This document shows, in pieces, positions 2,686 to 54,831 of a stretch of DNA of 64,000 nt. Position numbers and translations under genes: made by a program. The stretch is from Moniliella sp. 'wahieum' (lineage: Eukaryota). Each line of letters starts with the position of its first letter. The stretch's first letter is position 1. The DNA lies in contig RSEE01000016.1 of NCBI GenBank assembly GCA_003971905.1, positions 806,001-870,000 on the forward strand, read 5' to 3'. The notes below the pieces were generated by a model. That model was not told the origin of the DNA and searched no databases. It saw only the letters and a list, made by a program, of their open reading frames with translations.

Positions 2686-2858
2686 TACAGGGGCCGTAGT
2701 GAAAATGCGGAGAGGGGAAGAGTTGAATTTTTTGATGTGGCCGCGGCGAGTGTGACGGTGCGGTGTGAGGCCTCACATGCCTCACACCTGAGGCGGGCTT
2801 AGAGATCTGACGGTAAATCACATATGCTATTAGATGCACAGCTATCCCATGAAGTGTT

Positions 2859-3420
2859 TGTCACATGTCAGTACTCAGTACGTACTCAGTGTTATCCGTC
2901 CTTTGAGCAAGAACAATGCATCATAGCCATTCTATATTCTACCACACGGTTACGGATGAGTTATATTCCGGTTACCCATTTATTAACCGATTTTTGCATG
3001 TTAAAAGTCAGGACTCTTCCACGGTCCTTAGTAACTACTAGTGACTAGTTACTCATGCTGCCTGCTATCTGTCACACACAAGACTTCCTACGCGTCAGAT
3101 TATGTTGGGTTCCCCTCCCTATTCCATAGCCACAAAACAGCAAACAACACATTAAGCCGTTCCGCGGGCCCGAGGGGGGACAAAGAGCCCATTCTTCAGT
3201 TGGCTCACCGGTCGCCCCCCTTGACCAAAACCATGGCCCGCCGTGAAGCAATTGAAGGGAGCTTCGCCCGAGTACGTCTGTGTATCCAACACATTCTGTG
3301 AGTTGTGAGTTGTGAGTACAGTAAAGTGTACTTAGTATACTGAGTACTGACAATTGGTGACTATGTGTCTCCAGGCCCCAGGTCAGAGCTTCCAAGCTTC
3401 AAGCTTCAAGCTTCACGCGT
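2859..3420. repeat. Cluster of 7-bp-register T[CG]A-palindrome arrays
   Basis: TCA CATG TCA GTAC TCA at 2861; TGA CTAG TTA at 3042; TGA GTAC TGA at ~3341; (CAAGCTT)x3 then CACGCGT at 3393-3420. Confidence 0.85.
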
Positions 3421-7494: not shown

Positions 7495-8219
7495 ACCTTG
7501 GCGATGACGATGATAAGATATAATAACCACTAGCTAGGACTTTGCAAGAGACTCCATTTGTTAGCAAAACCAACCTGGATAGGGCGTGTGTTACTCAGCT
7601 TAAGAGGGCTTCATACCTTCAGGAGCGATGTTCGCCTGTAGCATGGAGCACAAGTCCTCAATTTCGGCTCAAGAGGTGGATCAATGGTAAAACTGGGGGG
7701 ACAGTCAGACCGATCATGGTGTAGGTTGGGCATGAGAAGGACGCTCATGAGGGACGTGCGGCAAAAGAGGGAAACTGTCGAGAGAGGTTTTGGCTGTGCC
7801 CTGCGTTAAAAACGGGCGCGAGGAACTGCAGGAGTTCACAGGCCCGGCAAGCAGATACAGCTAATATATTTTCTAGGAAAATCAGTAGTGCACTTTAATG
7901 TTAACAGTATGAAGCGAAAAGAGTCGGCTGGCACTTACTGTCGGCTGCATGGGGAAAACCACATATCATAATAATTCTGCCCCAACAGTTCGTAATTCAT
8001 CAGACACGATGCCCCTGGAGGGATTGTACTTTACCCAACTCGCGGAGTTGGGTGTTTATAGCTGTAGTGTTGGTCGTCAGCCAGGTTATTTCCCGATATA
8101 GCCTGCTGTTCATTATTCTCAGTGTCTCTTTTTGGTCTGTGCCGTTCCCGCGCATCATGCATAATCGACATAATCGATCGTCGATCTCATCACTTATAGG
8201 CGAAACATATGGGGAGACG

Positions 8220-8288
8220 CACGCGGGGGCGAATCACGCGGGGCGATCACGCGGGGCGAATCACGCGGGCACACACGTGGGGGCGAAA
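8220..8288 (+). repeat. Imperfect ~13-15 bp tandem repeat (cacgcggggcgaat)
   Basis: About 5 degenerate copies read directly. Confidence 0.8.
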
Positions 8289-8314
8289 CCAGGCAAAACT
8301 TAAGGTTTAATGTT

Positions 8315-8690
8315 CACTCATGCACCATGCATGAGCATGAGCGCTGTTGAACGTTGAGCCTGAGCCACAGGAGCCTTGTGACATGTGACATGTGAATGAA
8401 GTCGGAAAGCAAACCATCCAGGCGGCATAGTAGTCTGTTTCGGAGATTCCGAAGTCGATGATCAATGATCGATGATCTATCCTCCTTCCTCGGCTCCGGT
8501 TGCTAGTTACGCGTTACGCGTTAAGCTAGTTACTAGTTATGGCTTATTTACTCTCGTTCCACCCCCCCGCACTGTTTGTGACATGTGACATGTGACATGC
8601 GATTGGCGGGAGAGAGCGCTGCGGGTGCAGCAACAGTATCTTCGTGGTGAGCCAGTGAGACCACGTCTGAGGCCTGAGGGCCTGACCGGC
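8315..8690. repeat. Dense cluster of 7-bp-register palindrome arrays
   Basis: TGA ACGT TGA; (TGACATG)x2-3 at ~8379 and ~8579; TGA TCGA TGA at 8466; TTA CGCG TTA CGCG TTA AGCT..TTA CTAG TTA at 8507-8539; TGA GGCC TGA at ~8668. Confidence 0.9.
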
Positions 8691-9235: not shown

Positions 9236-9400
9236 TCAATATTCAATGCTCAGGCCCTGAGGCCCTGAAGCTGAGCAGTCACAGACTGACTAGTAACATG
9301 TGACAGTCTGTAGCAACGTCCTGAGCCATCCCTGCTATGGAGACTGCAAGGAATGTGAATGGCTGAGCGCTGAGCTCAGCGCTGAGGCTCAGCGCTGAGA
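9236..9400. repeat. Cluster of 7-bp-register palindrome arrays
   Basis: TCA ATAT TCA at 9236; TGA CTAG TAA CATG TGA at 9287; T[GC]A GCGC TGA x3 at 9364-9398. Confidence 0.9.
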
Positions 9401-11711: not shown

Positions 11712-13251
11712 GTTGGCAGCGATAAAAATAAGCGGAAGGGAAAGAAGAGAGGCGAGTGAAGTGTGGTCCAAGACGAGTAGAAGGGGTGCTTTGAATAGAG
11801 GCGATGGCATATCCCTCACCCCCACTTTTTATACGCATCTCTCGTGGAGTAGGTCGGTGTGGTGGATTCAATCACTTGCAACCATGGATGGAAGTCGGCA
11901 TCGTATTTTCCCATTCGGGCAGTTGCAGGCCCACACGTAAGAAGAAATGGAAATATCCTCACGTACACACATCATGTTCTAAACATGATTGGGTTCTGAC
12001 TCATCTGCCAGCCTCCCTCTCAACATGTTTGATCATGATAGCCAAAACATTGTCGGTACCGCATTCCAAAGAAGGTGGTGCAAGCCCTTTCACCGCAGCA
12101 ATCCCCAGTTGGGCGTGGGAGCCATCGTTTGCTAACCACAAAAACAAGAGATATATGACGTCGAAGTTGCGTTGCTGGGACAACAAGTGAAGCAGGTGAA
12201 TTGTCGGAAGCGAACGTGCCCACCAACCCTGGCACCTGTGAATACTTGGGGACGGGGTGATGGCCAAAAATTCAACAGGGCTACGTGGGGCTGTGGTCTC
12301 TGATCGAATAGGAATATGAGGCTGAGGTAAAGTGGAGCGCAAAAGATAGAAAGAAAGACAATATAATGGACGGCTTTTTAGGCGCCTGTGTACCCTCTTC
12401 TCAGAATGCTATAATGCCTGTTCTCCGCAGAAGTGATGAGAGACACGCGGTCGCGGATCGGACCCAAACCATAAGGTACGATGGTTCCTAGTAGTACTTC
12501 AACTCGGTTCAACGTCTTCAACCTCCAGTCGTTCACCGTTCACACGTATCTCACAGACGTCCCCAGTATTATTTCAGTGTATTGTGGGACTGAGAGTACT
12601 CGCTGAGTACGGAACTGAGTATTACTGAGAGGGTACCCCATACAAAGAAGGTTAGATCTTAGACAGAGGCAATCTGTGATCCATTAGCACGCATGTTAGG
12701 AAGTGGTGTAAAGCTTGAAGCTTGAAGTGTGGTGGAACAAAGTGGAGCAGTGGAGCGTATGTTTTGCTTATAATAGCAAAAAGAGTGTGTCCCGTCTTGC
12801 CTCGGTCGTTGTTATCGATCATCGTTGCCTATCTCCGTGATCTGCCCACGTGAAATTGATGCGCATCCACTGCAGCGATCAAGCTTCAAGACAGCGGAAC
12901 CGACAAAAGGGAGTGGGGGCCGGGAGGCTAGTCGGACCGATGATTTTAACGATGAACATAACGCGATATCTACTACTCAAGCTCATTACATACTGCTTCG
13001 GCTGCTTGAACAAGCAGAATGCGACAAGAACGCCAAGTACCAGGGACGCACTCAAGAACCGTTTTTCCCCTGGTTTTGACGACGCGAGGATACTACGGCA
13101 CCAAGACGGCGGGCAAGTTGTTTGCGCATTGGAAGGAGTTGGCTACTAAGTCTCAGTGGAAATGGTTCCTCGCTCGTATGTCAACCACGTTCCTCCGTGT
13201 CCACACGCGCTTCCTAGGGTACGGGACCGGATGGCGTGAGCCGGAGGGTCC

Positions 13252-13378
13252 TGATATCCTGGCGATCCCCTGGTTCCTTGACCTTAGTGGCGCTTCCAAG
13301 TAACCCCCGCAAGATGAACGGTTCGGTTTAGACGTAGCGTTCCCCCTGTCCCAGCCTTAAGCTCTGTCAATGATATGA
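13252..13378 (+). repeat. Dispersed repeat family, copy C
   Basis: tgatatcctggcgatcccctggttcctt ... ccaagtaacccccgcaagatgaacggttcggtttagacgtagcgttccccctgtcccagccttaagctctgtcaatgatatg. Confidence 0.9.
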
Positions 13379-13496
13379 ATTCAAAGTGAAGGGCATAGCC
13401 CGCAATAATTTTGGCCCTGACACTGCCCCACTGCGACGAAATTGCCTGGTGAGAGCTTGCAACGCAGGTAGGGTTGAAACGTTGAAAGAGTCGGTC

Positions 13497-13538: not shown

Positions 13539-13650
13539 CAACTCTTCTGGCCTTCTGGCTTAGATCAAGTGTAGTATCTGTTCTTAACAGTTTGACAATG
13601 TTACGCTGGGCACTGCCCGCTGTACTTGTCATTCCACTCTTTGTGATTTT
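13539..13650 (+). ncRNA. U2: U2 spliceosomal snRNA (5' ~110 nt; 3' stem-loops not recognisable, possibly a truncated copy)
   Basis: GGCCTTCTGGCTTAGATCAAGTGTAGTATCTGTTCTT matches U2 stem I and the branch-point recognition sequence GUAGUA; stem IIa TAACA/TGTTA with loop TGACA complementary to downstream TGTCA (stem IIc); Sm-like ACTCTTTG at 13636. Confidence 0.9.
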
Positions 13651-14182
13651 AATGATCCTGGTTACCCGCGACACGTGTCAGGACTCGCTTGATTAGGGCG
13701 AGATTTTCCTCTTCAAGGAATCTTCCTCGTCGAGGTGCTCTTCCTTTGACGCGAGAAGATCGGCTCTGGTGCTGCGAACCTCCATGGCGCACAGCTGGGG
13801 AAGATCGAGACCGGCGCCTGGCACTTCCTTTATGGTCATCAGCATCTCATGGATCTTGTTTGCGGATTCAAGTCGCGTCCGGTTTGGGATTTGCCCTCGG
13901 GTTGCGACCATGTTGTGGTTGTATACCGGGGGCGGGTTGTGGGTCTTTGGGGAAAGGGAAAATCGGGAGATTTGGTGATGGGGGGCGACCGGGAGGTGGC
14001 CTTGTGGGGTGGGGGACGGCAACCGGGAGGTGGCCTTGTGCGGTGGGGGACGGGCAACCGGGAGGTGGCCTTGGGGTGGAAGGGTGGGATAACTGTGGTG
14101 CTCAGGACTGGGGTTGGGGAGATCAGAGAGTCGTAGGCTCAGGGTGAGCTTCAGATTGTAACTCTAATGATCCTGGTTACCC
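13650..14182. mobile_element. 515-bp segment bracketed by an 18-bp direct repeat (possible insertion or TE remnant)
   Basis: TAATGATCCTGGTTACCC at 13650-13667 and 14165-14182; internal G-rich minisatellite; no recognisable transposase or reverse transcriptase motif. Confidence 0.4.
13989..14077 (+). repeat. 34-35 bp G-rich minisatellite, ~2.5 copies
   Basis: ccgggaggtggccttg starts at 13989, 14023 and 14058. Confidence 0.9.
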
Positions 14183-20643: not shown

Positions 20644-23314
20644 CTATGCTTGAGCCGGGGGTAGCCAGTCCCCATCACGCCATTCCCTGTGCTCCTTCCA
20701 CGCCCTGCCTTGCCCCGGCCCCGGCTCCCACTGCCAGCAGGCGCATCCGCACGGGGCAGGGGAGGGACCGCAGCATACAGCGACGCCGCAGCAGGCTCGA
20801 CCCCAGCAACGTGCGGGGCGGCCATCGGGTGGCCTTGATCCCTAACGGCGGGGATGGCGGCCGCGACCTCTTCCTCTTCCTCTCTTCCTTCTCCCCTCTC
20901 CATCCTCCTCCAAGTTGGGCTTGCGGTGGAACTTGTACACGTGCTGGCTGAGCGCATGACGCGTCGGACCAGCGTAGTCGTTGCATATAGTGCACTCGTA
21001 CGGCCGCGGTCCCGCATGAATCCGCATGTGCCAGGCAAGGGCGGGAGGAGAGCGAACGACGCGGCCGCAAATGGAGCAAGTGATGCCTTCACCCTTCTTG
21101 CCCTTAGTACCAGGCTTCGATGAGGGGCGAGAGCTAGCAGTAGAGCGGGCCCGCTTCGCCTGTGCCCCCCCCAACCGAGCTGCCTGGGCGAGTTCTTCAT
21201 AGCCGCATGTGGGGCTGCAAAGCCAGTGGATGCCTTTCCCTTTGCAGAGGGAAGAGCGTCTGAGTCCGTGGCAGATTTGCGCCGCGCCTTGGAGTTCTCC
21301 TCGCGATGATGCTTGTAGATGTGTTGGTGAAGAGCATGACGGGTGGGGCCTGCATACTCTGAGCAGAGTACACTGGAACGGCCGAGGCCCTTCATGAGTG
21401 CGGATGTGCCAAGCTAAGGCTGGAGGTGAGCGAACACTTCGCCCACACATGGGGCATGTCAAGGCCGAGCTTCCCTGCGCATCGCCACCAACACGCTTCG
21501 CACTCGCGCCAGGCGGTTTTCCCTGGGCACCGGAACCATTGAGGCCAGTAGGAGGCTACCTACCCCGTTCCCAGCCACCGCTGCATACCCGTAGCGTGGG
21601 CAGACCCCGCGGTAGCCATAGGTGCAAAGGAGGACTCATCTTGCTCATCGGCACGAAGACGGGATCGCTTCTTTCCCCGGGCGGGCTGCTGAGCTCCCCG
21701 TTTGGACTTTGCACCTTGAGAATTGGTAGCTGGAGCGTTCGGATAAGCTGCATTCTCCATTGGGTGACGAACGTCAGGGGGCAAATGAGAGCCGGTTTGA
21801 GGGAAGCCAGGGTACTCCGGATTTTCCCAGGCGCAGTACCCTTGTATCGACCCGCATCTGATGGGCGAGGGGTTGCCTGGTTCAACCCCGAACGCTTGGA
21901 CCGCGACGCTTTCGATATAGATTTGGGGTTGACCGACATTACGCCGGGACTGATTGAAGTAACGGGGGCCGACGGGTCTGTTCCGCCGACGAGGCAGAAT
22001 GGTGGTGGGCCGAGTAATAGGGAGAAGACTGGACCGAAGACCCTGACTTTGACGCCGACGAGGCATGCTGAGCTTGCGCTGTAGCATGGACACGCCCGAT
22101 GGTAACCCCGACGCAGAGGACGAAGGCAGGATACCCGATCCCGCCAGCGTGGCCGCCGGAGGCAAGCTAGGAACCGTGACCGGCAGGGCTGGTTCCAGGA
22201 AAGGAGACACCTCATTGGATCCCACAGCAGACGCAACGCTGGCGCGGGCCTGGGTGCGCCTGCGCCCACTGGGCCGTGAGGGTCGCCGCGATGAAGCGGG
22301 AACAGTAGTAGGAGGAAGATTAGATTCCGGTTCCACGCCACTAAGACCCGAGGAGGCAGGGAGCCTTGGAGTCCAATATTGGCCGAAGCAGCCAGCCTAC
22401 AGGGGACATTGCCGCATGAGTTGGAGTCATGTTGGGGTGATGATGGGGCCCGGGTTGGAGAGCATGTGGGGGGATGGGGCGTACATATGTTGCCCGTATT
22501 GGCCAAACTGGGAAGAATACTGTGGCTGCACGACCTCGGTTTGGATCTGTGCCTGCATCTGTGCTTGCACCTGGGCCTGGGCTTGTGCCTGAGCTTGGGC
22601 TTGAGCTTGGGCCTCCGCCTGGGCTTGAGCTTGAGCTTGAGCTTGGGCCTGCGCATGCGCCTGGGCGTCAACTTGTGCTTGAGCTTGGTGCTGCGCGTAA
22701 TGTTGCTGGTACTGCATATGCGACGGGGTATACTGATCGTACGGTGAAGATTGCGTATACTGGGGTGACGGGCCTGGAGCAGGAGGCGGAGGTAGAGGAT
22801 GAGGCTGCGTTGTGATCCATGTATCTGGGGAGGAGGGAGAGCAGGGGATGCAGTCGGAGGGGGTGACCAGCCCCATGAACGTCGGGATAGAATCGCTTGG
22901 ATCTCGAGTCCTCCTCCAAGTTCTGGAAGGCCAGCATAGGATCCGGGAGGCCCATGTATCCCCCTGCGTACGAGACGAAGGATCGTTACGCACTACACGC
23001 CCGTCGTACCCGCGCATCTCACTCATGCCAGGATGGAAGCCGGAAGGATGAGAAGCGTGCTGAGAGGGATGCGATAGAGCGTGCTGAGCCAGTGACGAGG
23101 CACCGGGGCCGCCCGTCTGAGCTTGGGACAAAGCGGAATAGTTGTGCGGCACGGTAGACGCGCCGGCAGCGGTGGCAACACCGTGGGTGTAGCCGTGTGC
23201 AGCAGGCGGCACACCGCTGCTGCTGGCCATCGAGGGGGCGGGGGCGCGTGCATAGGGGGCGGTGGGGAAGACGCGGTCATCGGCCCCACGTGTCGGCCAG
23301 CGGTCGCGGGACAT
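20644..23314 (-). CDS. C2H2 zinc-finger transcription factor with poly-(QA) tract (frameshifted)
   Basis: Two finger pairs, CPMCGR..LAWHIRTHEGPRPFQC and CSICGR..LAWHMRIHAGPRPYECTIC..HVYKFH; QAQAQ tract ~22550-22690; both ends approximate. Confidence 0.75.
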
Positions 23315-23851: not shown

Positions 23852-24327
23852 CCCCGTCCCAACACCTGGCGGCAGAGCCGCGTCACGATCAATACGCCTG
23901 TTGATGACGTTGGGGTACTCGGAGCACACTTTGGATTGGCGACGACACAGGCAAGTGAGAAGTGCAACACGCCATCACCCCCGCCACCTCGAGGTTCGTC
24001 TGCAGCGCTGCCATCGCCTGACCCTTACTACTTCAATCGGCTGCGTGTGGTTTGCCCATACTGAATACTGGTCTCAGATCTCAGACTGATGAATGCTCCA
24101 CGTCCAGCGGGGCCAACTAGCAACTGAGCTTTTGAAACCAACTTGCCAACCAACTTGGCCGGCATCACCTGCATCACCGGCCGATCGTCCATCATCGATT
24201 ATCCCGCTCCACCGCAAGCCGCAGCAGGCTGTTGGCGTACCGCCACCATCATCCCTCCGCGCCGTTAACAGTCACCCTTTGCAGCCGTCCACCTTTTCCC
24301 ATCGCCAGCCAACAGCTAGGTCTGAGT

Positions 24328-27847: not shown

Positions 27848-28449
27848 GGAAGGTCGTGGTTGGTACAAACGAGTTGGAAAAGGTGAGAGAGGAGAGCAAT
27901 ATCTTATACTCCTTGAAACACTTTCCAGGTATACTATAGGGGGGAGGCAGATCTTTTTGTGGTGCTGTTTTGAGAGTGCGTGCTTGATGCTGGGAAGTGG
28001 TGACCGGCTGTTGGCAATGAGAGGTAGGAACGACGGGGCAATTCAAGACGCCAACCGCGGGGCAGTGCGGGTAATACGATAATCTTTAGATACAACACTA
28101 CTTACTACTGCTGGAGCTAATAGGGGTGGGTTGAGTAACCGTATGATGAGCAGCATGATCCATGATGTCGAGAAAAGGTACATGCTATCAATGCTTGCCT
28201 TTGCAGTCCGCTCTCAGGGTTTCATAGAAATGTCCGTAATATGCGCGCTGCTGCACGCGGTAAAACGGGCAACACCGTGTCCGACAAGCCCTTCTCGAGC
28301 TCAGATTGGAGGAGATAGAAGAGTGGGGGGATGACGCGGCAATCAACACGTTCAATGATTAGGAAGAGAAGCTGAGGGACTCTGCGCCACTCGGCCCAGG
28401 TGAACGGAAGAGAAGACGCAAGACCTTGCTCCAACCATCAAGTCTCTCT

Positions 28450-29026
28450 CACCATCGACCATCAACGATCATCATCGATCATCATGCATCATGCTGGGGA
28501 GACATCTGTGACGCCCTGGAAGCTGGATTCAAGCTTCAAGGATGCATACCCCTCAGAGAGCTCGTGAGGCGATGCCGCGAAGAAAACGGTGCATTATGAG
28601 ACTGCCCGAAGTATCGGTTAAGCCAATAGGCGCGGCGATAAGAACACCGTGACGCCGTTTGACTTGGCAGGAGAATGATGCGAAGGATGACGTGCGGTGG
28701 AGCGTACTCGATGTGGAACACTGACGTTCTTGCATATCGAGACGATCTGAATGAAGCGTTGACGCGATTTTTTCAGGCGTCCTCGCGTCCTCTTGGATGA
28801 GCCTCATCGATCATCACCTGTGACATGTGACAGCGTGGGCGTCTTCAACACGTACATCCAACCCGAATGTTTATCGAGTTTATCAACGAGCCCTCGGGCG
28901 GAGGCCTGTGCCCGGCCTGGCTTTGGCCCTTCAAAAAGCTTCAAGCTTCAGTGAGCTTGCGGCTGTGGAGGATAGGATGCCCTCGTTACGCTGGGCCAAA
29001 CATCCGGTAAACGCGTAACGCGTAAA
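28450..29026. repeat. Cluster of 7-bp-register palindrome arrays
   Basis: TCA TCGA TCA then TCA TGCA TCA at 28472-28491; TCA AGCT TCA at ~28530 and ~28941; TGA CATG TGA at ~28821; TAA CGCG TAA at ~29016. Confidence 0.85.
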
Positions 29027-29739
29027 CCCTCTACCGCGTCTCCAGTCTTAAGACCGGACGAACGGCCGCCGGCGATGTTGTGACGTGAGGGTGATCTGGT
29101 ACCTTGGCTCATAAGCGCTAGGCCAGTTTATACCGTAGCTCGTGCTGCCCGCGAGAGCGGCCTTCTCTTCTGCCCTAGTTCTCTGCAGTTGGTATCTTGT
29201 CTCTCCACCACCGCTCCGCTCTTCGCTTTACTCGTACCTCCGTTCCGGTCTCTGTGACCGATCGACTCTCGGTAGTCTGCTCGTTGGAGAATGCCCTGTT
29301 CCCCGGAACAACATTGGTCCACTGTAGTCTCAATCGTCGGATGCATCGCCATACCAGTCACACTATGGTACGTCATACTAGCACACTACCCCCACTGCAG
29401 TCCAATGACCTTGTAAAAGCCACAAAACACGGATCCATTCTCAAGAGCGAGAAGAAAGGAGATAGTAGAGCAGAGAAGAGGGGACGCATCGCGAACAAAG
29501 CCACATCATGGGAACAAGGGAGGACAGTAAGGGTAGGAAGAGGGGGCATAGGGAGCAGGCCCAAACATATGCAAGCGGTCGCTTGAAACAGGCAGGCTCG
29601 GCTTGGAAGTTGAGCGGTGGGGATATCATGACTCGGCAATTCAGAGAGGTGAATCAAGCCAGGGGGGGTAGAAGGGGTACCAAAAAGAGAAACGAAAAAT
29701 GGGAGAGGTATTCTATGAGGCAAAGAGTGTTGAGAGCCA

Positions 29740-32700
29740 TCAGTCATGGGCTCCCGCATCGATGGCGCCTGCAAGCAAGGCAGATGTCAAGCGGGCCACG
29801 AGCACGCGCTGCGTCTCGTCCAATTCAGGAGCCGCGCTGAACGCGCCACATTCAAGGAACCAGGCAAATCCAGCCTCGTCCAGGTAGGCGCCCAGGCCAC
29901 CACGCCGCGCCGTCTCGGCCGCCTGAGCAGCCACCACGGGCTCGCACACCGCCACAGAAGTGATGGCCTGCACAGCGTCCAGCACCAGCCCGTTCGTCGA
30001 GGATTCAATCTCCGTTTGCATACCAGCTGCAACCCAGTCGTACCTGCACATTTTTTCGTCAGCAACGTGTACAGCAAGCAACAAGAAAAAAGGGGAGGAA
30101 CGCACATGATGGACAGGATAGCGGGCTTGGCCACAGCCATGTCGCGCAGGGAAGTGTAGAGCAGCACCTTCTCATCCTCATCCTGGGCGTAGTCGAGCAA
30201 GGCGGCCAAAAGCGGTAACAAGAAGAGCTTGTTTGTTGTCAACGGGCGCAGCAGCGGGGCAAGGGACCATTCCCCTTGCCTGCGCGCATTGACCATGGAC
30301 TCAGCCACTTCGCCCGCGATCCCGGCCGATGACAAGAGCGAAGCCAGCCCGCTCTCGGTCGTAGCTGAGGGAAGTAAAGCCACAAACAACCCAACTGCGG
30401 GGGCAGCAACGCTGGCCCGCCCGGCCTTTCCATTTTCCTGGTCGGCTCCAGACGACAGACGCAGCAGGCACAGTAGCACCTCCACCGTCGACGCCCGTGT
30501 TGTGCTCTCCCGCAGACCGCGCACCAGCAGTCCCGCTAGCGCAAAGCCAAAGTCAATCTCAAAGTCCACCCCGGCCTCATCGTCGAGGCGGCAAGAGCGT
30601 CGCGGAACTCGTTCCGAGCCTCGAGGAGGAATGTGAGTGGATCAAGCCCAGCCGCAAGCGGCAACTGCACTGCAGCCAGAGTGGACAGTGCCGCGTTGAG
30701 CAGCTGTGCCGCTGCACTGAAAATCTCGGGCACACTCGTTTCGAGCATGGCAATCGCCACCCAGGCCATCTGCGGAAGGTATTTGCTCTGCGGAGGTAGA
30801 GCACGGACGACCTTAGCGAGACAGGTAACGATCGAGGCCAGCGGACCGGGGTTACATTGGAGCCCCACTCGAGCGTGGCACCACGGAGAGAGACCAAGAT
30901 CTGGTACATCAGATCATCATCAATCTCACCCTGGCCAGGGAACCAAGAAGAACGAAAGCGCGAGACTGGGCATGAGGGTTGTACTGGAACGCAGTGCTGG
31001 TCACGAGGCTCACGAGACGTGCACGCCACGCGTTGGCCGCATCCATGTTGGGTGCGGCAAGATCCAGCAAGGGAGGACACGCGAAGCAAGCTGCTCAATC
31101 TGCTCATGGTCGGCTCCGACACATCAACCACCATGGTTCCGGTGAATGGGTCGGGGCAGTCGTCGCCGTCCTTATCCTTTGGAAGACCAAAGAGGGGCGA
31201 GGCGTCGTTGCTGGCGAAAAAGAGGAGAGCTACGGAGCTTACTCGCTGCCAGGGGAGCCGGTGCCCCCACCTGGTCTGTCGGCCCAACCCCAACCCAACT
31301 CTCGCCCCCACGTACATGACGCGAATCGTCAGTACACAGCGAGTGGGCCAGGTTGACCAAGCCGTGCGCGTACCACGGCGCATCACATCTGGCCCGATCC
31401 CCACCAGGAGGAGAAGGACATGGATCGAGTCCGGCAAAAACAACATCAACTCCGCCCTAGATGTAAGGAGAGCACGACATTGAACCGAACCAACGTGCAA
31501 GCTCGAGCCAGACTTGCGCATCGGCATGGGGGTTGACGCCCAGGGCCTTGCTCGTCTTGGCATGGTCCTCCGTAGGCGGGCGAGAGCTTTCCGCATATTG
31601 AAGGAGGCGAATGAGGCAAGGGTCTCGCCACCGCCTCAAACGCAGCCGTTTCGATTCCAGCATCAATCGCAGCCTCGACAAACACGTCCAACAAGATAGG
31701 CAGAAGCGAGTCCAGCTTGGTCACATGCGCCCAACCAGCGCTGCATCAACGAGTACACATCGGGCTCCTGCACTGTGATCTTGACCAGGTGAGAGAGGAT
31801 ACCTTGATGCGCTTGATGTACTCTGCCTGCTGGTTGCGATTGGAATGGGTGAACAGTGCAAGGTTGGCTAGCCAAGGGACCATGTACTGCAGAGCCGCGG
31901 CCTTCTGATCAGGGGTAGAGACATCAAAGCCTTCAAAGAAGGACACGAGGAACTCCAGTGTGACGGTGGTGCGGCAGTGGCAAAGTCACGGCTGATCTCG
32001 GCGGCGAAGCTTGTAGTGGTAGCGGCAACCCAAGGCCCCGGACGGAGAGCAAGCGACGACGCGCATGGGAGGCGGTAAAGCTAAAGAGGTTGACAAGGCG
32101 AAGAGCAGGTTGTATGCGCTGACCCGCAGCGCATAGTCGCCACTGCCAAGGTTGAGCAGCGCCATGTTGAGCAGCGTGCCCGGCACATCGCTCGGCATCA
32201 GCGTCCGCTCCGCGGTGGCAGCGCCAGGAGCAGGGGCAACACGGGTGATGCGAGCCTTTGCCTGGCGGAGTGCCTGTACAATGTTAGAGCGGTCCTGGGA
32301 GTGGAAGAGGAAGACAGTCTGGCCGGCCTTGCAGGTGATGAGGAACGTGGTTTCCTCCCCGCGGGCTGAGCAGGGCAATGTCGTCAATATCGGCGAAATG
32401 GATCACCTCGTTGGTCGCAGCCGCCATGTCGACCCACATCTCTTGGGGCTTGAGCGAAGTGATCTGCAGATACTCGCCACTCGTTTTGAAGGCAACAGGC
32501 ACGAGAGCACGGTAGTGAGCAATGAGGGTGGCCGTGGCAATGATGTCTCGACGGGCGAGTGGAGGATGGCACTTGTGGTCGGCGCGAGAGCAATGTCGCG
32601 CGGGGAATGAAGCGTTGGAGCTCCTCCAGAGTGTGAACAAGTGAATGCTCTTGCCGTTAAGGAAGGCAAAGATGCTGTCTGGAGGTGCCGGGCCAGCCTT

Positions 32701-41380: not shown

Positions 41381-41426
41381 ACAGAGGCGGAACAGAGGCG
41401 GAACAGAGGCGGAACAGAGGCGGAAC
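41381..41426 (+). repeat. 11-bp tandem repeat (acagaggcgga)x4
   Basis: Read directly. Confidence 0.95.
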
Positions 41427-43614
41427 GGGGCCGCCTCGCACAGATCGTTACACTGGATTATACGCTGGCATCCTGACTGGGCGCCTTGGCCACATGAATA
41501 GTTGAGCGCGGGTCTTCGAAGCTTCCTATAGCACAACCAAGGCGAGGAGAAGTCGGAGACACAAAAAGAGAAATCTCTCTACCGACTGAATATAAATGCG
41601 GGTGTGTCAAGTAGTTCCGCCATGTAACACTATCGTGGTTTTGGCAGGGTTGTTGTTGTACACGAGGAAGAGAGCACCGCAATAAAACGCCCCTTTGGAA
41701 CTCTGAGAGAAGGTGCTGCCTTTCGACTGTTGGAACAAACTGAATGCGAAAGAACACCAAGTACCAGGGCATTCAAGAACCTTTCTCTCCTTTGGTTAAT
41801 ATGACGTTGCGAGAAAACACTTTATGCTGCCAAGACGAGACGAGCAATATGTTTGGGCACCGATATGGAGGACGAATTAACTACTACTGAGTCTCAATCA
41901 TGGAGAAACCGTTAACACGTTCACACCGCTCGGATGCCTACCACAATCATTTGTATCCAAGGGCACTACCTAGGGTTTGGAAACTGATGGTGGGCGCCAG
42001 AGGGTCCTCATATGCTGACGGTTCCCACGGTTTCCTATTAGACAGGTTTTTGGCGCCAACAAGCAACACACGCCATCAGATGAGCAAAACCGGTCGGTAT
42101 AGGCTCAGCATTTCTTTTTGTCCCAGTCTAAGCTTTGTCGATGATATCGTTACAGTGTAAAGAGGCTTAGGAATATCCAGAAACAGAGAGTGATTGTAAT
42201 GTCTTCTTCAGCGTAATGATAGCGTATCATCACTGGGTCGTTTTTGTTGCTGCATCTCTCTCTCCAATTCAAGTACAAAATGAACTGTGGTGCCATGAAC
42301 ACCATACTAGTACCAGACATTTTTCCTTGGTATATAAGCATCCTGCAAAGGAGTAGGAGATTTATAACCGATCCCTCCTGTGACTGTTTCGCCTCTCGCG
42401 GCAAATCTAACATGAACGAAACAGAAGGGGACGGTTTGATTGGATCGAATCCCTAGTACGGCTCTTCTGATCGGCAAGTATTGTCATGGGGGGGTAGATG
42501 GACCGACGTTTTGGGGAGTAATCCCTTGGACGAAGTGTAGGAGCGGAAGATGCCCTCTCAATTTGGGTTGCCTGAGTGAAAAGGCGGTGGTTGAGACCCT
42601 CCGAGCACGGAGCGGCGTATTATAGGTCGTTCAACCCCGGGTTGTAGAGACTTAGATGGTCTCGGGGGTAATGTATGTAGTACCTTCCGGTTACCAGGAT
42701 CAACGCTGGTAATAGGCGGACCGAGACGGGATGTCGGGATCAGGCGTACGCCTGGTTCTGCACATATAGTCACCAGATTGGCTGAACCCTTATGGGTTCT
42801 ACACCTGTTTTTCCCCTTTGTCTATGTTCTTCCAAGATTCATGTCCGGAGAGGCAACCTGACTGTCTCCATAACACTTGAAGTATATAGTATGAAGCATT
42901 GAGAGGGAGTTGTAATGTAACGTTCCCCATTTGGAGAGGGACTGCCCAGCTGTTGGTTTCTTCCACCCCCAACGGGCGGCATTTTTGAGCCAATTTTGCC
43001 GGCGTATTAAACGTGAACATGCAACAGCATAGGGCATGATCTGCGTGATCTGCTTGATCTGTCAGCATAATACACAAAAGAAAAAACACACAACCGTTAC
43101 CAAATGCCGCTTCAATATAATAGCTTGGGCATCAACTATATGTCGCTGAATGAAGGGGCAGTGATAGCGTGTATAAGAAAGTAGGACCAAACCAAGTTCA
43201 GACGCGTGCCTTTTTGGCTGATTTTAACTCACCCCGCCGACAGCTTTTTTCGCTTCAGTTCGCCTTCCCTTCGTGTACTACCGCTTCACTTGCTGTCAAC
43301 ATAAGTTCGCTTCGCCTACCCCCTCTCTCTCCCCTATAACTTTTTCCCCTGTCGCAGGCACCCGTGCGCAGGCTTCCTTTTTCTCAAGTCCAATCGAAAA
43401 GGTGATCTCATCTCATTAAGTCTTTCAGATATCATTGGAGATGGTTCATAGTTCACATCAGGTCTACCCCACACGCATTCTTTTCATCCATTCGCCACAT
43501 CCAGGTTGGAAGAGAATATGGCGGGATCCACACACAATCTCCTAAGCTCATCAGTGTTGGCGACACCTCATCGCCTTCCTAACTGGGCTAGCAGATCTAC
43601 CAGCGCATATGCCG

Positions 43615-46600
43615 GGTGAACGTGGTGAACGTTGAACGTTGAACGAAGAGCTCGGCAGATGATAGTGTTTCTTTGTCCTTCTCTCAGTCTTTTCAGTTGT
43701 TCAAGTGCTGCTATATATGAATGCAGCAGTATATATATCAGAGGGGCTATAATGGGGACTACATCATGTTAGACTGATGTTGTGGGCGGACGCTTCATCT
43801 CGTAGCAAAGAGTCTTTGATATGCAATGCACGCGGCGATCAAGTTACAGCAACTGGCAATGTAGTAGTCTTAATGGATGAGAAGGTTTTGAGAGAATAAC
43901 TGTATAATAACTCGTTTGCACGTGCTGTGGTGAAGGGTTTTTCACGAGTGCCACGGTTTTTGGCACAGCAGAGCACAACAGAGTACTGACTGAGAGAGTA
44001 GTATAGCCTTGCCAGTACGTTGTTTCAGACTAGTAGTCACGAAGCAAATACTAATGATTAATGAGCCTGCCGTGCGTGATCTACAGATCTTGGCTTAAGA
44101 GTAGGAAGCACAGTATTAGCACTCACATGTCACACCCCCTACTATTATTAGTACGGATACGCTATTGGCGTAGATAGGATGTGGTTGCTGGCAAGACGCC
44201 AATGGTCTACTATTAGGTGGGGAACCTCTGTTAGATGCGATTGAGACACATAATCATATGACGTCTTCATAAAACGATGTGCCACACTTGTCAAGCGGCC
44301 AGTGGACTTCCTTGAACTTGAAGTAAAACGTTCAACGTTCACCCATAAAACAAGCTGTGCACATCTCCAAAATGGTCTGGTAATCGCCTTAGAAGAGGCT
44401 GTTTGGCGCCGCTATTCTGATGTATATCCGACAAAATGTTTGGTGATATGCACTGCGTTTTGTGTATATCTCAAACGGTGTCTGTTGGCATCTCACAATG
44501 CCTTCAGGTTCCACAGCGAAGTTTGACGATAACCAATTCGATCATTGTCGGGTCAATCGACAATCCCGCATCCCATCCATCTCTCGGACTCTCATTTCTG
44601 CTGATGCACTGATGATCGATGACATGTGACCTGTAACACCTTATGGGAGCTCTACTCTTTTCGTTGTATGCGGGAAAAATGCCCGAGGCTGATAAAATGG
44701 TTTTCAGTATGCCGCCCGCAAGACAAGCACGGTACTGATGAGACCTGGAGTCCAGATGGTCCTCGAGGGTGATGCAATCGCACTAGTGGTGGTGGTGGTG
44801 GTGGTGGTGGTGGGTCTAAGCCAACCAGCAACGCCTACAGAGGAACATCAAGCAGCGCACCAGGGGCTAAGCTGCGGAACAAGGAAAAACAGGAGAGAAA
44901 AACAACGGAACTCCTAGGCCTGAAGAGGAACTGAAGGGACATTGACCAAAGCACGAGCCACCTGATGGCTCAACAGGTACAGCACTTGGATTTGAGAGAG
45001 AGGCTTGAATCTTGAAGCTTGACGGAGGAAAGGCTATGTACGAGAGCTTGAAGCTTGAAGCTTTTGACGCTTGAAGCTTGAACGTCTTGAACAAAAAGTG
45101 TATCTCCGACGACGAAGCTCAGCGCTCATGCACTCACATGGCGCTCATGATTATCATGTGCCTATTTTGTGAGTACCTGATGCCGTGGGTGTCCAGCCAT
45201 GATGCAAGGTCATGCATGAACATCAAATACAGGAAGAGACCCTGTGTTACGCCCTGATGAGCAAGGAAGCGCATCATGCACATCATACAACATTCTCAGA
45301 TCTCATAATGGACCCTCCATGAGAATTGTGGTAATGCGATGATTTTGAGATGTGACATGTGGGATCTAGCAATTGGATCTGAGATCTGAGATACTGAGTA
45401 CGTACGGGCGTAGCACTGGCGTAGCAGGGCGTAGTAGCACGTTGAGGCTGTTGTGTTTGTGTGTGTTGTGACATGTGATGTGAACATGTAAATATGCAAC
45501 CAATGCATCATGCGATGCATGTGATGGATGTGATGTTTAGATCTCAGATCTCACATCTTTCCGAATCTCGCACTCACATCATTAGCACAGGTCACTTCAT
45601 TGGCATGTAAAATGATTAATGACGAAGGTACTGAAGACAGAAGGTTGAATGTTGAGGGGAGTATCATGTACCGCGTATCTCATTCTCAGGGCGATTGGCA
45701 GCCAGGGGGCTGATCGAGAGGGTCCGACATACTGATGGGTATACAAACACTCCAGGTAGAGAACCCGAACAGCGCAACGGTCTGGAGTGTGGCGCTAGAG
45801 CGTGGTACCCGGTACCGTGGCGTCGGTGATACGTGGGATGGTGTGGGGGATGCAGGCGATAAAAACGCAAGCATCATGCACATGCGTTATAGGGGGAGAG
45901 GGTGCCATCATATTAATCCCAATTCAGAAAGAAGGATGGGAGGTCGGCGTGTGGTGAAGCTTGAAGGGAAAGCGTGCCCCATATGATGGTGTGGAATCGT
46001 GTGTATTGGGATGCTGTGGCCGGTAGTACTATAATAGGTGTGTGCGATTACTTGCTAGTTATACAACAGGGCACTTGGAGCACAGAGAGACAGAGATATT
46101 CAATGCCCCACCTGACATGCCACATACACAGTTGCCGCAACTTCGCATCATGCACATGTGTGCACATCATGTTTCATGCATCTTTTGCTTCATGATGCCA
46201 TCCGTAATACTTCTCAGTACCTAATAGTAAACACATATAAACACGCCCTCAGGCCTCAGGCCTCACATCCTATATCAAGATCAACACATAAGACAATGGC
46301 AGTGCATTAACTAGTAAGAAGTGCAACAAAACTTGATCTGGCATGCTGCACACGGAGAGTTCATCCCCCCGACGGGGCCCCTACCGGCCCTATCCCCTCA
46401 AAATTGCCTTCTTGTGGCCGGTTATAACATTCTGGCGAAGAGAGATCTCGATCAACGGCAGAGTGGTCGCAAGTCTCACTAGTCACTATAGTCACTTTCG
46501 TCACTAGTCACTATAGTCACCTTCTGGCCACCCTTGTCCGCTTCCTCCCAACCGTTCTTGTGACTGTAACAGCCTCGGTCCTGTTGGCGTCCGTTCCGGC

Positions 46601-46860
46601 GCACGCGACCATGCCAGCACTGCAACACCGTGGCTGGTACAGGGTAGTGCCCCCAGTGCAGCATGTAATACAACAGAGTTTAATCCCATACAGATTCCGG
46701 CCCCTTGTCTGGGACACGAGCCAAACTGTAACGTTCACGCGTTGCCGTTTAACGTTTAACGTTTAACGTTTAACGTGAATCTTGAATGTTGAATGTCGTG
46801 AACGCGTGACGCGTGAAGCTTGAAGTTAAGCAGCACTGAGCCTGAGCGCTGAGGCGCATA
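43615..46860. repeat. Gene-free tract rich in 7-bp-register palindrome arrays
   Basis: ACGT core at 43626 and 46749; TTAA at 44055 and 45613; TCGA then CATG at 44613; AGCT at 45000-45090; GATC at 45380 and ~45545; GGCC at 46249; CTAG at 46476 and 46501; CGCG then AGCT at 46807; GCGC at ~46843. Confidence 0.9.
44786..44812 (+). repeat. (GTG)9 microsatellite
   Basis: Read directly. Confidence 0.95.
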
Positions 46861-47164
46861 TAGTTTTGCCAGTTACAGCCTCAGGCCCAAAAAGCCCGAC
46901 GGAACTAAATGTACTAAACCCCAACTGTTGTGCTAATCATTTTATCAAGTTTTTTTTGCAGTGGGACCCAGTGGCCTTCAACTGAAGGTGTGAATCACAT
47001 ATTCACACAGAATGTACGCCATTACTAGGTCTTTTATATATCTTGTAAAGCCGCCCTCGCCCCTGGAATCGCCATTCACCTCCCTCCCACCGTCCTTACC
47101 CGTTTTCAACGTTGGTTTCGCCACAGCTCATCGTCCTTTCTTCCATTCATTACTTCTTACGATC

Positions 47165-47632
47165 ATGTCGAGCGCTTACTGCGGCAACGCGTTCAGCACC
47201 TTCTGCCTGCCCTTCTTGGGCCAATGTACGTCGAATCTTCTTGCCTTCACTTCTTTTTTGATGCCTACCCACGCACCTCCACCTAAGAAGCCGGTGATTG
47301 ACATTACCTTCCCTAGTCCGCATCTGCCAAGTGATTTGTACATGTGGCTGCTTGGACCATCGCTTGGCTGTGGCTGGGATGCTGGCGAGTTTGACCATGC
47401 GGACCAGGCAGAGGACGATGCTGCGGCCGAGGCGGCCAATCTGCGAAGGAAGCAGGCCCTCCTTGCCAAGAAGGGCCCTAGCATGGCCCCCTCGGCTAGC
47501 TATGCCTCCACGGAGGCAGAGAGGCAAGAGGAAAAACAAGTTCCGGAACAGACCGAAGCCGAAAACTACCAGCACCAACCTCACCCTCGCGACACAGCAA
47601 GTCGCGCCCGCGACTGCCCCCTAATAGTCTAG
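47165..47632 (+). CDS. Small hypothetical protein with a Cys-rich N-terminus and charged C-terminus
   Basis: ATG at 47165 (MSSAYCGNAFSTFCLPFLGQ); GTACGT..TAG intron 47226-47316; continues FRICQVICTCGC and, after a frameshift, EDDAAAEAANLRRKQ; no family recognised. Confidence 0.45.
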   Translation: MSSAYCGNAFSTFCLPFLGQCTSNLLAFTSFLMPTHAPPPKKPVIDITFPSPHLPSDLYMWLLGPSLGCGWDAGEFDHADQAEDDAAAEAANLRRKQALLAKKGPSMAPSASYASTEAERQEEKQVPEQTEAENYQHQPHPRDTASRARDCPLIV

Positions 47633-50600
47633 ACGCAAGATTTCCCCGTGTCAACCGCCGCAATGGAGGCGAGCGATGCATGCACCAATTTCGCCTTCCC
47701 CGACACACTCTTCGGGGTTTGCTTGTTTAATATCCCCACCCCGGTCCCTTATTCTTGTTACGGAAAGAACGGGTGTTTTTCCCTCATCCTCCGACACGCC
47801 GTTTTTGGTGTTCTGATTATATTCTGCATATGTTGCTCCCACCGATCTTCTATTTTTTCGCTCAGGTACTTTTCATATTTCTTTATTGTCCTCGTGCAAG
47901 CAACAACATGTACTGTGACCCTCTAAAACGGGCCCGAGTCATCATTGGGGGGAGAGACCATTATGTGATGATCGTCGAGCGCATGGTGTCTTGTAACTGA
48001 AGAAATCCAACAATGGCTCACAGATGTGTGGTTGAGGATAATTGTACGTTCAGCTATATTGCACTTCACGAACCATGTCCGGCTTAAAAGATCCCAAAGG
48101 GTCACCTCATATGGTGAACGCTCCAATGCCAATGGAGTCCACAGTAGTTACGCAACAGTTGATAGAGATCAGACTTCACGTATGATACGGGCTCACCTTT
48201 TTAGTGGAGCGCCTGATGCCTTTGACGATAAATCATGTCGTATTCATTATCATTTGAAAAGAAAAACTTAGCAGGGACACTCAAGAAACGCTGTGCCAAC
48301 CATACGAGCTTGCTCACCCGGCGTTTCTGACAGCTCACGCCATCCCAACCAGGAGACCATGGTGTTTTCCCACCAGATCGATGGAGTAGGGGGGCTTCCG
48401 CCCCATTCGTTGCTACACCGGATGCAGTGCCATTATTGGTAGATGTATACGAATGGCGTATCTCTCTTGAAACTCTTCTCTGCAAGTTCCTTCCAGCAGA
48501 GTTCAAACATCTTTTCATGACAGTATTGGTGGCGCATAGTTACCCACAGTGTGTTGTCATAGTCCAAGGTGGAAAACGGGCTTTGAGTGCGTCCGTGGAA
48601 CTTGGCGTTCTTGTCGCACATACGGCTCGCTCGAGCCCTAGATGCAGATCCTCTCCCCGCACTCCTCAGGCACTGATGAGACGATTCCTCGTGTATCAAC
48701 ACATTATTTGTAAGTAACGCACCCTTGCCCTCATTCGTCCCGAGTCTCACAAGATGTGTAACACTTCCATCCCTGATCCAATAAAAGCACCTTGGGGCCT
48801 CCCCCCTGAAGTCCTTTTACGCCTAGAGCTATTATCTCTCGTCGCGATTCCATACACTTCTTCCCCCACAACCGGTCCATTGAAATAGAACATGAAGGTA
48901 TCCCAAAGATGAAGCGCACAACTGAAAATGGGCTTCCCCATTGTCTCGTGCAGGGGAATGCTCCAAATCCTCTGGCGCCTACGCTACAGCCTTCCGATCT
49001 TAGAACGTTCGCTGAATCTCACTGTGATTAGTTAGCAACTCCCCCGTGTGGTCACGTACAATCTACCAGGCAAAAGAACACCCGGCGACCATCCCCACAA
49101 ATAGCCCACATCCTGCCCAACGTGCAGTGCTGATGGCCTGAACGGCCTGAACATTTCTTTCTCTCCTCTCCCTGTGCCGTCACGTGGTATGCCAGCCACT
49201 GGCCTCCACGCCCTTCACTTCTGACGTCTGACGTCTGAGAGAGATCTGACGCATGATGTTGCTCCCCAACCCCTCCACCTCACACCCACCTCACACCCCC
49301 ACCTCACACCGACTAGCACCCATTGGCCATTACACCAACAGGATGGCGACGATGGTCCCCTCCAATGCCGCTTCGTCTTCGCCGCCAATCCCTCTGCACC
49401 GGGAGGACCTCAGCGTCATCCTCCACAGTGCTAGCGCGCCTGATCCACTTCTGCGCCAATCGGCGTATGCCTGTCTTGCCTGGGCATCGGCCTCAGCCCG
49501 CATACCGACCCCTCTCGCCCTACCTGCCCCCTCCCTCTCCTCTAAATTTGGCCAGTCCTGAGAGTGCGGGTGCAGCTGCTGCAGCAGGCGCAGCAGGTGG
49601 CGCAAACGCTTCCCCTCTCACACTTCCCTCAGCCCCGGCGCACACCGTCTCCCTATCGTCAAGCCCGCCGATGACGCCTCCCAGAAGGAGATACCACCTC
49701 CACACCCAGCACGGACCGACCATCTCTTCTTGAGGCTTAAAAGCTTGAGCGCTGGACTCGGCACAGAGCGCTCGACGTGCTCAACGCTCACCTTTTTTGC
49801 CATGACTTCGGCTGTCCTCCGTTGAGGCACGCGCCTTTACCACACCTCACCACTTCGCATTTCACTAGTAACTCTTGATGGCTTCGAACTCCAAACTTCA
49901 ACCCATGATCCCTGTTACGCACTTCTCACTTGGGATTCCTCTGGTCATGGCGGCTTCCTTCAGGCCTTAACAGCGGCCGCATCTCAGAGTGAGGCTGCGC
50001 CAACGCGCGCAGCGCTGTGAATATCAGGCTCAATCAGCCTATCTGGGAACCCTTCTTTCCTTCCCATCGACTCGCAATGAACACTCTAAATTACCAATGT
50101 TTTCTTCTCCGACCGAGGATAGATGGGGCAGAAGGGCAGGTGTCGCACGCCGGCGCCATCGGCCATGGGCTATCGATTGGGCCAGGACACAGTGCATTAT
50201 CCGGCCACCGCAGTCACATTACGCACGCATCGACATCAACGTTCGATGAACAGGTTGAGCCTTGTTGGCTTTCCAACGTGTGCAACCTCCAATCTCCAAC
50301 ATCGTCCGATGGCTGATGGCCAGCAACTGCCGTTGCCGTCTGATGTTGGGCCGGACGAATAGGAAAGGTCACGTGCAAGCCCGGCGTGAGCGACCAGACG
50401 CGTTGAACATTTGACAATGCCATTTTTTCGATCCACAGGGGTTGCTGTGCGTCAGTGTCGCCATACGTCATGGTCACCGTGGGCACCTCAGGCAGGCCTC
50501 AGGCCTTAGGCTGGCCTCAGTGCCTCAGAGCATCCTCAGCGCTCCTCAGCGCCTCACTCTCAGTGCAGCCAGGTGTCACAATGTCAGCAGGTGTCAGCTC

Positions 50601-54725: not shown

Positions 54726-54831
54726 TGCACTCGCCGGGATTCGAACCCGGGCAACAACTTTTGCTAGCTCACCGTGATGGAACCCCAAATGGAATGGGAA
54801 AGTTGCATCTTAACCACTTGATCACGAGTGC
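54726..54831 (-). tRNA. tRNA-Gly(CCC) with a 34-nt intron (54794-54761) after position 37
   Basis: Acceptor GCACTCG/CGAGTGC+A; D arm ATC-AAGTGGTTAA-GAT; anticodon stem CAACT/AGTTG with loop TT-CCC-A|A; T arm CCGGG-TTCGAAT-CCCGG. Confidence 0.93.

Follow-up and report, generated by a model that had tools for sequence, protein, structure and literature searches.

Seven-nucleotide arrays around T(C/G)A in a fungal locus: candidate scars of hairpin-type excision

How does a short tandem array change its palindromic core from one unit to the next while keeping its register? The question is raised by a 64-kb stretch of DNA (the window), in which an initial annotation had reported the string CG-TGA-CGCG-TGA-AGCT-TGA-AG at positions 46805-46825 and a second one, TG-TCA-CATG-TCA-GTAC-TCA-GT, at 2859-2877. 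Both are present at exactly those coordinates. The annotation had proposed that such arrays follow a two-sided flank rule, by which the left core matches the left flank and the right core the right flank, and that they stem from ancestral 7-nt sites of the form NN-TSA-NN, where TSA stands for T(C/G)A.

Genomic setting

Pfam domains on the open reading frames (ORFs) of the window (SF3A3/Prp9, RasGAP, JmjC/Cupin_8, MFS, syntaxin, C2H2, and Zds_C) indicated a eukaryotic source. In protein searches, the best named relatives of the SF3A3 ORF were those of Tilletiaria anomala (50%), Violaceomyces palustris (44%), and Malassezia (37%); the JmjC ORF had two close relatives (77% and 73%), and its remaining fungal matches reached at most 38%. 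On these sequence relationships, we read the source as a probable basidiomycete near Ustilaginomycotina. The control set comprised 200,860 nt of eukaryote-like contigs, metagenome loci that encode the JmjC neighbor gene, which matched the window at no more than 40% identity over long matches and at up to 64% over short segments.

An Rfam scan of the window gave no match at any of the arrays. It placed a U2 spliceosomal RNA gene at 13540-13652 (+ strand, 70.8 bits), some 160 nt downstream of a member of a dispersed repeat family. Copies of this repeat, 66 to 86% identical, lie at 2598-2685, 5313-5450, 12997-13383, 41722-42147, and 48567-48618 (reverse); this old family was the only dispersed one found by self-BLAST of the window, and it overlapped none of the arrays. 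The repeat could represent either an upstream region of snRNA type or an old element, and Rfam detected no snRNA after its other copies in the window. Rfam also called a tRNA at 54726-54831 (- strand, 51.9 bits), whereas ARAGORN reported none in the window; since the call spans 106 nt, an intron is probably present.

A palindromic period-7 pattern across the window

Among tandem repeats of the window, a period of 7 nt occurred most often, and almost all of the units contained TCA, TGA, TTA, or TAA. Sites at which a triplet recurs across a 4-nt palindrome (XYZ-pal4-XYZ) numbered 166 against a shuffle mean of 72.9, the entire excess coming from TCA (33) and TGA (32). Pairs of the same TSA triplet peaked at a spacer of 4 nt, with 114 to 115 pairs, compared to 26 to 70 at the other spacers within 0 to 12 nt. 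At that peak 64 to 65 of the spacers were palindromic, although 4-nt palindromes make up only 5.8% of all 4-mers; pairs of opposite TSA triplets had no peak there (23 pairs, 5 palindromic). Same-TSA pairs were also raised at spacers of 3, 5, and 6 nt (63, 59, and 70, versus 26 to 32 at spacers of 1, 2, and 7 nt); some of these are trimmed scar variants and some the product of codon periodicity.

The flank rule fared well when tested on the arrays of the window: 53 of 61 TNA/palindrome arrays obeyed it on one side or both (23 at the left flank only, 19 at the right flank only, and 11 at both), leaving 8 that obeyed it at neither. By our own reading, 10 of 12 multi-core arrays had outer core halves that matched at least one flank and left-derived cores to the left of right-derived ones, the exceptions being 44613, which conforms on one side only, and 8507, which conforms on neither. 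Among same-TSA pairs, 114 in the window included 64 with palindromic spacers and 58 that obeyed the rule, versus 191, 8, and 3 in the control contigs. Because the controls are nearly free of flank-rule pairs, the pattern is a property of this genome. An unbiased scan recovered the same grammar as a motif in which a 5-mer, 2 nt of reverse complement, and the 5-mer again follow one another (63 + 58 cases, versus 5.8 + 5.2 in shuffled sequence), and in most cases a TSA begins or ends the 5-mer.

The choice of target was more specific than the choice of flanks. TSA triplets carried 49 arrays per 2058 sites and TWA triplets 4 per 765, a difference of about 4.5-fold per site; flanking bases were nearly free, their preference at the target being weak, and one-sided events used 15 different palindromic cores. 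This diversity of cores indicates that no single binding site is favored. The initial annotation had further proposed that events are bidirectional around the quasi-symmetric TSA, and the orientation classes agree with this (26 versus 17, p = 0.22), the central base setting no polarity. Events avoided GC-rich, ORF-dense bins; 23 of 66 flank-rule events fell in the main hot region at 44000..48000, with 12 in the bin 8001-10000 and 7 in the bin 28001-30000.

Matches to the 12-nt pattern numbered 85 with no mismatch (shuffle mean, 0.2), 87 with one (9.3), and 259 with two (124). Such decayed copies indicate that the process is long-running, and their spectrum of ages, like the avoidance of GC-rich coding bins, makes it hard to credit an assembly or sequencing artifact as the source of the pattern. 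We know of no artifact that yields so precise a sequence grammar, and we give that explanation next to no weight.

Anatomy of a single event

Could the units be ordinary copies of their neighbors? The initial annotation had argued that replication slippage cannot make them, since it copies an existing unit and creates no new core in phase. For every pair we measured how many positions of period-7 identity lie to the left of the triplets (l) and to their right (r); in a true 7-nt tandem copy, l + r is at least 4. This sum fell below 4 in 35 of the 64 palindromic-core TSA pairs, and the units therefore cannot be plain slippage copies. The commonest classes were l = 2, r = 0 (13 pairs) and l = 0, r = 2 (8 pairs, and 5 more with l = 1). 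A single event has the structure xy-TSA + rc(xy) + xy-TSA, or its mirror form, the new core half being the reverse complement of the flanking dinucleotide. Nor are these pairs explained as decayed perfect tandem copies, since the unmatched flank looks random: of 26 one-sided singles, 5 agreed at the first base beyond, a share near the 25% that chance predicts. Microsatellite slippage on existing palindromic 7-mers, or selection for protein-binding sites there, would account for 10 homogeneous triples and for arrays of up to 4 to 5 units, yet it leaves the missing period-7 matches, the random unmatched flanks, and the flank-rule agreement of the mixed arrays (5 of 6 flanks; see below) without a cause. 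We consider it very improbable as a general explanation. Slippage alone was thus rejected for the founding events and survives as a secondary route by which arrays lengthen.

We described each junction by whether either copy of xy-TNA-ab is intact, trimmed, or extended by inverted bases. Seven sites (2771, 8160, 24163, 28869, 43615, 45077, and 49137) repeat a full NN-TNA-NN 7-mer around exactly 2 inverted bases, compared to 0.00 in 30 shuffles, from which it follows that the duplicated unit is 7 bp long and that the ancestral site was the 7-mer which the initial annotation had supposed. When all 7-mers that recur at a distance of 2 nt were scanned without bias, TNA occupied the central offset in 12 of 70, versus 2 to 7 at the other offsets. 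A model of a 5-bp duplication with 2 inverted bases was dropped in favor of 7 bp, since in the period-9 class the entire 7-mer recurs, TNA at its center, and a 3-bp duplication was ruled out, as bases beside the triplet are duplicated too.

In the dominant class, one copy gains exactly 2 inverted bases and the other loses exactly 2, leaving as spacer a 4-nt palindrome derived from the left or the right flank; this +2/-2 balance keeps the total length at 14. Same-TNA pairs at period 7 comprised 25 of the left type only, 13 of the right type only plus 9 that are ambiguous with a 1-nt offset, 18 that fit every model, 7 plain direct duplications, and 1 + 1 unique to a 1-nt offset, each class having a shuffle mean of at most 0.23. 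The 2-nt offset was thus nearly invariant among them. Period-7 TNA pairs that fit no class numbered 63, versus 41 in shuffles, so part of the signal is left unexplained. Minor junction variants were +2/-1 (3 and 2 cases), retention of both palindromes (1), and plain duplication.

A second way to place a short inverted copy beside a direct repeat is template switching during replication at a quasi-palindrome, in which the nascent strand copies 2 to 3 nt off the opposite strand at xy-TSA, realigns 5 nt back, and is later followed by slippage. Its product has the right form, and it is also in its favor that the palindrome grows to 6 nt once the T and A of the triplet are counted (k=4/m=3 class, 53 + 51 cases, versus 4.8 + 4.9). 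The realignment, however, would depend on 1 nt of homology, and template switching leaves unexplained the whole-7-mer repeats around 2 inverted bases, the TNA-centered plain 7-mer duplications, and the preference for S over W. We regard it as quite improbable.

Arrays with mixed cores

A strict scan for mixed arrays, in which one TNA triplet occurs three times with a period of 7 and the palindromic cores are of two different kinds, found 3 in the window (2861, 44613, and 46807; Table 1) alongside 10 homogeneous triples. The mean in 200 block shuffles was 0.005, and the 200,860 nt of control loci contained none. At 5 of the 6 flanks of these three arrays, the flank dinucleotide equals the adjacent core half, the sole mismatch being the right flank of 44613 (cc in place of the expected ca). 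The array that begins at 2859 includes, at 2875, the only site that retains both 4-nt palindromes, with an 8-nt spacer.

Six in-register core switches had been claimed in the initial annotation, and these three are the ones that stand. At 9287 (CTAG to CATG), the middle triplet is TAA rather than TGA, and the left flank fails. At 3393-3420 (AGCT to CGCG), the AGCT units are real, but TCG and not TCA follows the "CGCG" at 3416. The switch proposed at 8507 (CGCG to AGCT) lies in a TTA array whose CGCG cores match neither flank, and there AGCT followed by AG-TTA makes a 6-nt spacer. The expectation that mixed arrays exceed chance likewise held only in part: it held against random sequence, as represented by the shuffles and controls, and failed against independent double hits in hot regions. 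With some 600 TNA sites in the hot bins, our own arithmetic from bin counts predicts a few double hits. By this estimate of ours, the three mixed arrays are unremarkable, and it is the homogeneous triples that exceed the independent-event null. This excess suggests either slippage or preferential hits on the symmetric sites that the scars themselves make.

Table 1. Positions of arrays and duplications discussed in the text
Positions	Feature	Remarks
2771..2786	CCTCACA + tg + CCTCACA	Whole NN-TCA-NN 7-mer; the 2 bases are the reverse complement of the last 2 of the left copy
2859..2890	TG-TCA-CATG-TCA-GTAC-TCA-GTACGTAC-TCA-GT	Second mixed array; left-type core and right-type core
3297..3317	(TGTGAGT)x3	Plain 7-mer duplication; core = right flank + left flank; no inverted bases
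3387..3415	AGCT-TCA x4	Homogeneous array; left flank matches
8160..8175	CATAATC + ga + CATAATC	7-mer repeat with 2 inverted bases
8377..8395	TG-TGA-CATG-TGA-CATG-TGA	Left-type homogeneous array; twin at 8577-8599, both flanks matching
24163..24178	CATCACC + tg + CATCACC	Inverted bases mirror the start of the right copy
28869..28884	GTTTATC + ga + GTTTATC	
43615..43645	GGTGAAC + gt + GGTGAAC, then two right-type TGA-ACGT units	Period-9 and period-7 scars, one ancestral site
44611..44629	GA-TGA-TCGA-TGA-CATG-TGA-cc	Third mixed array; left flank obeys the rule, right flank 1/2 nt
45077..45092	CTTGAAC + gt + CTTGAAC	Ends the AGCT-TGA array cluster 45003-45091
46746..46776	(CGTTTAA)x4.4	TTA-ACGT units on palindromic site GT-TTA-AC; both flanks match
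46776..46796	TGA-ATCT/ATGT period-7 units	Non-palindromic cores; adjoins the next array
46797..46825	CG-TGA-A·CGCG-TGA-CGCG-TGA-AGCT-TGA-AG	Array that raised the question
46837..46852	TGA-GCC-TGA-GCGC-TGA	Irregular neighbor; neither flank rule obeyed
49137..49152	CCTGAAC + gg + CCTGAAC	
49220..49238	(TCTGACG)x2.7	Plain 7-mer duplication

The array that prompted the question extends to the left of the string first reported, and it shows how several outcomes can combine. Its junctions comprise one in which the left copy is 1 nt short and followed by 2 inverted bases, one of the left type (CGCG), and one of the right type (AGCT). The first of these, at 46799, belongs to a class in which the spacer consists of one flank base and a left-derived palindrome. 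The four TGA copies are all derivable from a single putative ancestral 7-mer, CG-TGA-AG, and the array reads as three hits on that one presumed site. It lies in a crowded patch, with about ten events within 46746-46852.

Nearby, a 25-nt unit, TCACTAGTCACTATAGTCACCTTCG, is present twice at 46476-46524, each copy with a TCA-CTAG-TCA scar and a TCA-CTATAG-TCA junction, the 6-nt palindrome of the latter being inconsistent with a 2-nt offset. As both copies already hold scars, this larger duplication is younger than the scars.

Other short repeats of the window stand apart from these arrays. A perfect 11-nt repeat, ACAGAGGCGGA (4.2 copies at 41381-41426), is non-coding and unrelated to the TSA grammar. 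A degenerate hexamer/12-mer repeat (TGGGCT/TGAGCT, about 19 units) at 22545-22696, within a GC-rich long ORF, yields TGA-GCT-TGA pairs of period 6 that are not scars. At 9361-9399, three copies of GGCTCAGCGCTGA alternate TGA-GCGC and TCA-GCGC with a period of 13 nt and form a longer near-palindrome, and a similar 13-nt alternation (TCACATG TCACAG) occupies positions 1-38.

A candidate mechanism: hairpin-type excision

What could duplicate 7 bp, invert 2 nt of one flank, and do so again at the same place? We lean, at slightly better than even confidence, toward reading each unit as a scar left when a cut-and-paste DNA element inserted and was excised once, a transposon being the agent that we infer. 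Insertion would make a 7-bp target-site duplication, NN-T(C/G)A-NN, and excision would then cap the two flanks, which both terminate in a 7-mer copy, with hairpins. Each hairpin would be opened by a host nuclease 2 nt 3' of its tip, giving two 4-nt self-complementary 3' overhangs on duplexes that end at the two TSA triplets. End joining would set these overhangs opposite each other in the same 4-nt gap, and one alone would survive repair or replication, leaving a left- or right-type scar; where the site is palindromic, the overhangs would be cohesive and the product a perfect 7-nt tandem copy. The laying of overhangs opposite each other is a step that we only infer. The scheme as a whole would yield a constant period of 7 nt, both scar types in similar numbers, perfect tandems at palindromic sites, and left-derived cores to the left of right-derived cores. 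Every scar would moreover provide a perfectly symmetric xy-TSA-y'x' site and a second TSA, such that repeated hits on one ancestral site could build arrays, with opposite outcomes producing an in-register core switch and slippage perhaps adding length to homogeneous arrays.

The junction variants are those expected from hairpin opening and trimming. A "both overhangs kept" class had 1 consistent case and 1 inconsistent double palindrome. A predicted "both overhangs trimmed" class (TSATSA) had no support, its 51 pairs being no more than those at spacers of 8 to 12 nt (47 to 53) and common in coding DNA.

Several observations weigh against a transposon. One is that the 64-kb window holds no element or transposase: a search of the window for inverted termini that adjoin TSA duplications of 7, 5, or 3 bp gave 2, 1, and 0 weak hits, none of them credible and one an array artifact, and no transposase Pfam family was found in the 231 stop-to-stop ORFs of at least 100 amino acids in the window (227 scanned directly and four under near-identical coordinates). 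Another is that the 2-nt offset is far more uniform than published footprint spectra. Owing to the extreme clustering of events, a transposon would also need strong local re-insertion or a hot target. The period-7 TNA pairs outside every class (63, versus 41 in shuffles) likewise weigh against it. By way of argument rather than evidence, a conservative, low-copy element that leaves one scar per hop could have scars that far outnumber its copies. To our knowledge, and in the literature that we searched, no transposon family with a 7-bp NN-TSA-NN target has been described.

The same end chemistry could operate without a mobile element if a host or domesticated nuclease repeatedly made 7-nt staggered breaks centered on TSA in open chromatin. 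Fill-in would then give the 7-bp duplication, and the inverted bases would be due either to capping by hairpins or to synthesis that turns around at the filled ends. The absence of element and transposase from the 64 kb, the packing of events into a few non-coding patches, and the unusual uniformity of the offset are all in keeping with such a nuclease. Fill-in with turn-around would, however, favor 7+2+7 scars (7 cases) over the 14-nt class that was observed (about 66 pairs). We know of no nuclease that makes TSA-centered 7-nt staggered breaks of this sort. In the available text of the sources discussed below, moreover, a fixed-length duplication with P-type bases is established only for insertion followed by hairpin-type excision. 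We judge a nuclease acting alone to be unlikely.

Comparison with known systems

Two familiar families of cut-and-paste elements were ruled out. The target consensus of PIF/Harbinger is TWA, and an element of that type does not fit since the duplication here also takes in two bases on either side of the triplet. In a Tc1/mariner footprint, the junction bases derive from the transposon ends, independent of the flank; in 53 of 61 arrays here, core halves are the reverse complement of the flank dinucleotide, and 15 cores occur.

Hairpin-forming systems offer a closer match. As described in the accessible portion of one account, hAT, Transib, MULE, and RAG systems form hairpins on the flanking DNA that are opened by host enzymes, e.g., Artemis, and end joining then leaves footprints (PMC5499845). 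Footprints of Ac/Ds in a fungus consist of short deletions together with inserted palindromic P nucleotides; Pso2 is the Artemis-related hairpin nuclease of yeast, and Ds in Candida left 28 different footprints among 128 revertants, according to the available part of that study (PMC5873905). Such footprints arise independently of replication, as far as the same partial texts describe them (PMC5499845, PMC5873905). Fixed-length duplication, a flank-derived palindromic junction, and small deletions together are the signature of hairpin-type donor-site repair in the published text available to us, and the window has fixed-length direct duplications, junction bases that are reverse complements of the flank (P nucleotides), and small flank deletions. 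In keeping the target duplication, in P bases that mirror the flank, and in small deletions, the scars thus resemble the hairpin-type footprints of hAT Ac/Ds, MULE, and Transib elements as outlined in those texts (PMC5499845, PMC5873905). They differ from the Ac/Ds footprints portrayed there in that the even palindromes here are centered on the copy boundary, whereas those of Ac/Ds are centered on the complement of the bordering base (PMC5873905). They differ from hairpin-type footprints at large in the 7-bp T-S-A-centered duplication, the dominance of one outcome (+2/-2), the density of about 1 scar per kb, the stacking into arrays, and an element that was not found in the window.

In size and symmetry, the cores have a counterpart in V(D)J coding joints, made by RAG and Artemis:DNA-PKcs. 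Artemis:DNA-PKcs cuts hairpins open mainly at +2 and gives mostly 4-nt inverted-repeat 3' overhangs, according to the accessible text of PMC2175297, and such overhangs equal the cores here in both respects. V(D)J joining is nevertheless a vertebrate somatic process without target duplication, and fungi have Pso2, not Artemis:DNA-PKcs, in the account partly available as PMC5873905.

Duplications of 7 bp are known from DNA transposons of the same phylum, namely hAT7 (Pucciniales) and Kyakuja (Agaricomycotina), compared to 3 bp for canonical Harbinger, in the available text of PMC12730594. hAT7 belongs to a hairpin-forming superfamily, although TSA-centered targets and footprints are absent from that part of the description of either group (PMC12730594), and no homologue was found in the window. 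Assignment to the hAT superfamily specifically was not retained: that superfamily makes an 8-bp duplication (5 to 7 bp in named subgroups) with footprints centered on the complement of the base that borders the element, the 7 bp here fits only hAT7, and the palindromes here are even, with no central odd base.

Heptanucleotide microsatellites generated by slippage share with the arrays their short, head-to-tail 7-nt units in non-coding DNA. They differ in that the founding events here create a new inverted dinucleotide, the units consist of TNA and a palindrome, and the cores switch in register according to the flank. The literature that we searched, mostly at the level of abstracts, gave no account of TSA-centered 7-nt palindromic scars or of heptamer arrays built from footprints.

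Implications for the genome

The kind of event, a hairpin-type footprint, is known; its target, its uniform +2/-2 outcome, its density, and the way in which arrays are built appear to be new. More broadly, and only as a tentative proposal that we do not hold to be likely, a previously undescribed hairpin-forming cut-and-paste system with a 7-bp NN-T(C/G)A-NN target, or its host-tamed descendant, may be where small insertions mainly come from in this Ustilaginomycotina-like fungus, leaving about one scar per kb in promoter-like DNA, founding heptamer microsatellites de novo, and turning each scar into a better next target. If hairpin-type excision did make the scars, the window would preserve, like a fossil record, the traces of hundreds of transposition events whose element is itself absent from it, and a low-copy cut-and-paste element could still be the chief producer of insertions, heptamer repeats, and short palindromes in regulatory DNA. 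The scars would also serve as a read-out, from sequence only, of hairpin opening in this fungus, almost always 2 nt off the tip. Since the grammar is precise (NN-TSA-NN, a 4-nt palindrome from one flank, and a length of 14), it can be searched for genome-wide and across related fungi, and the origin of one class of microsatellites would become directly testable.
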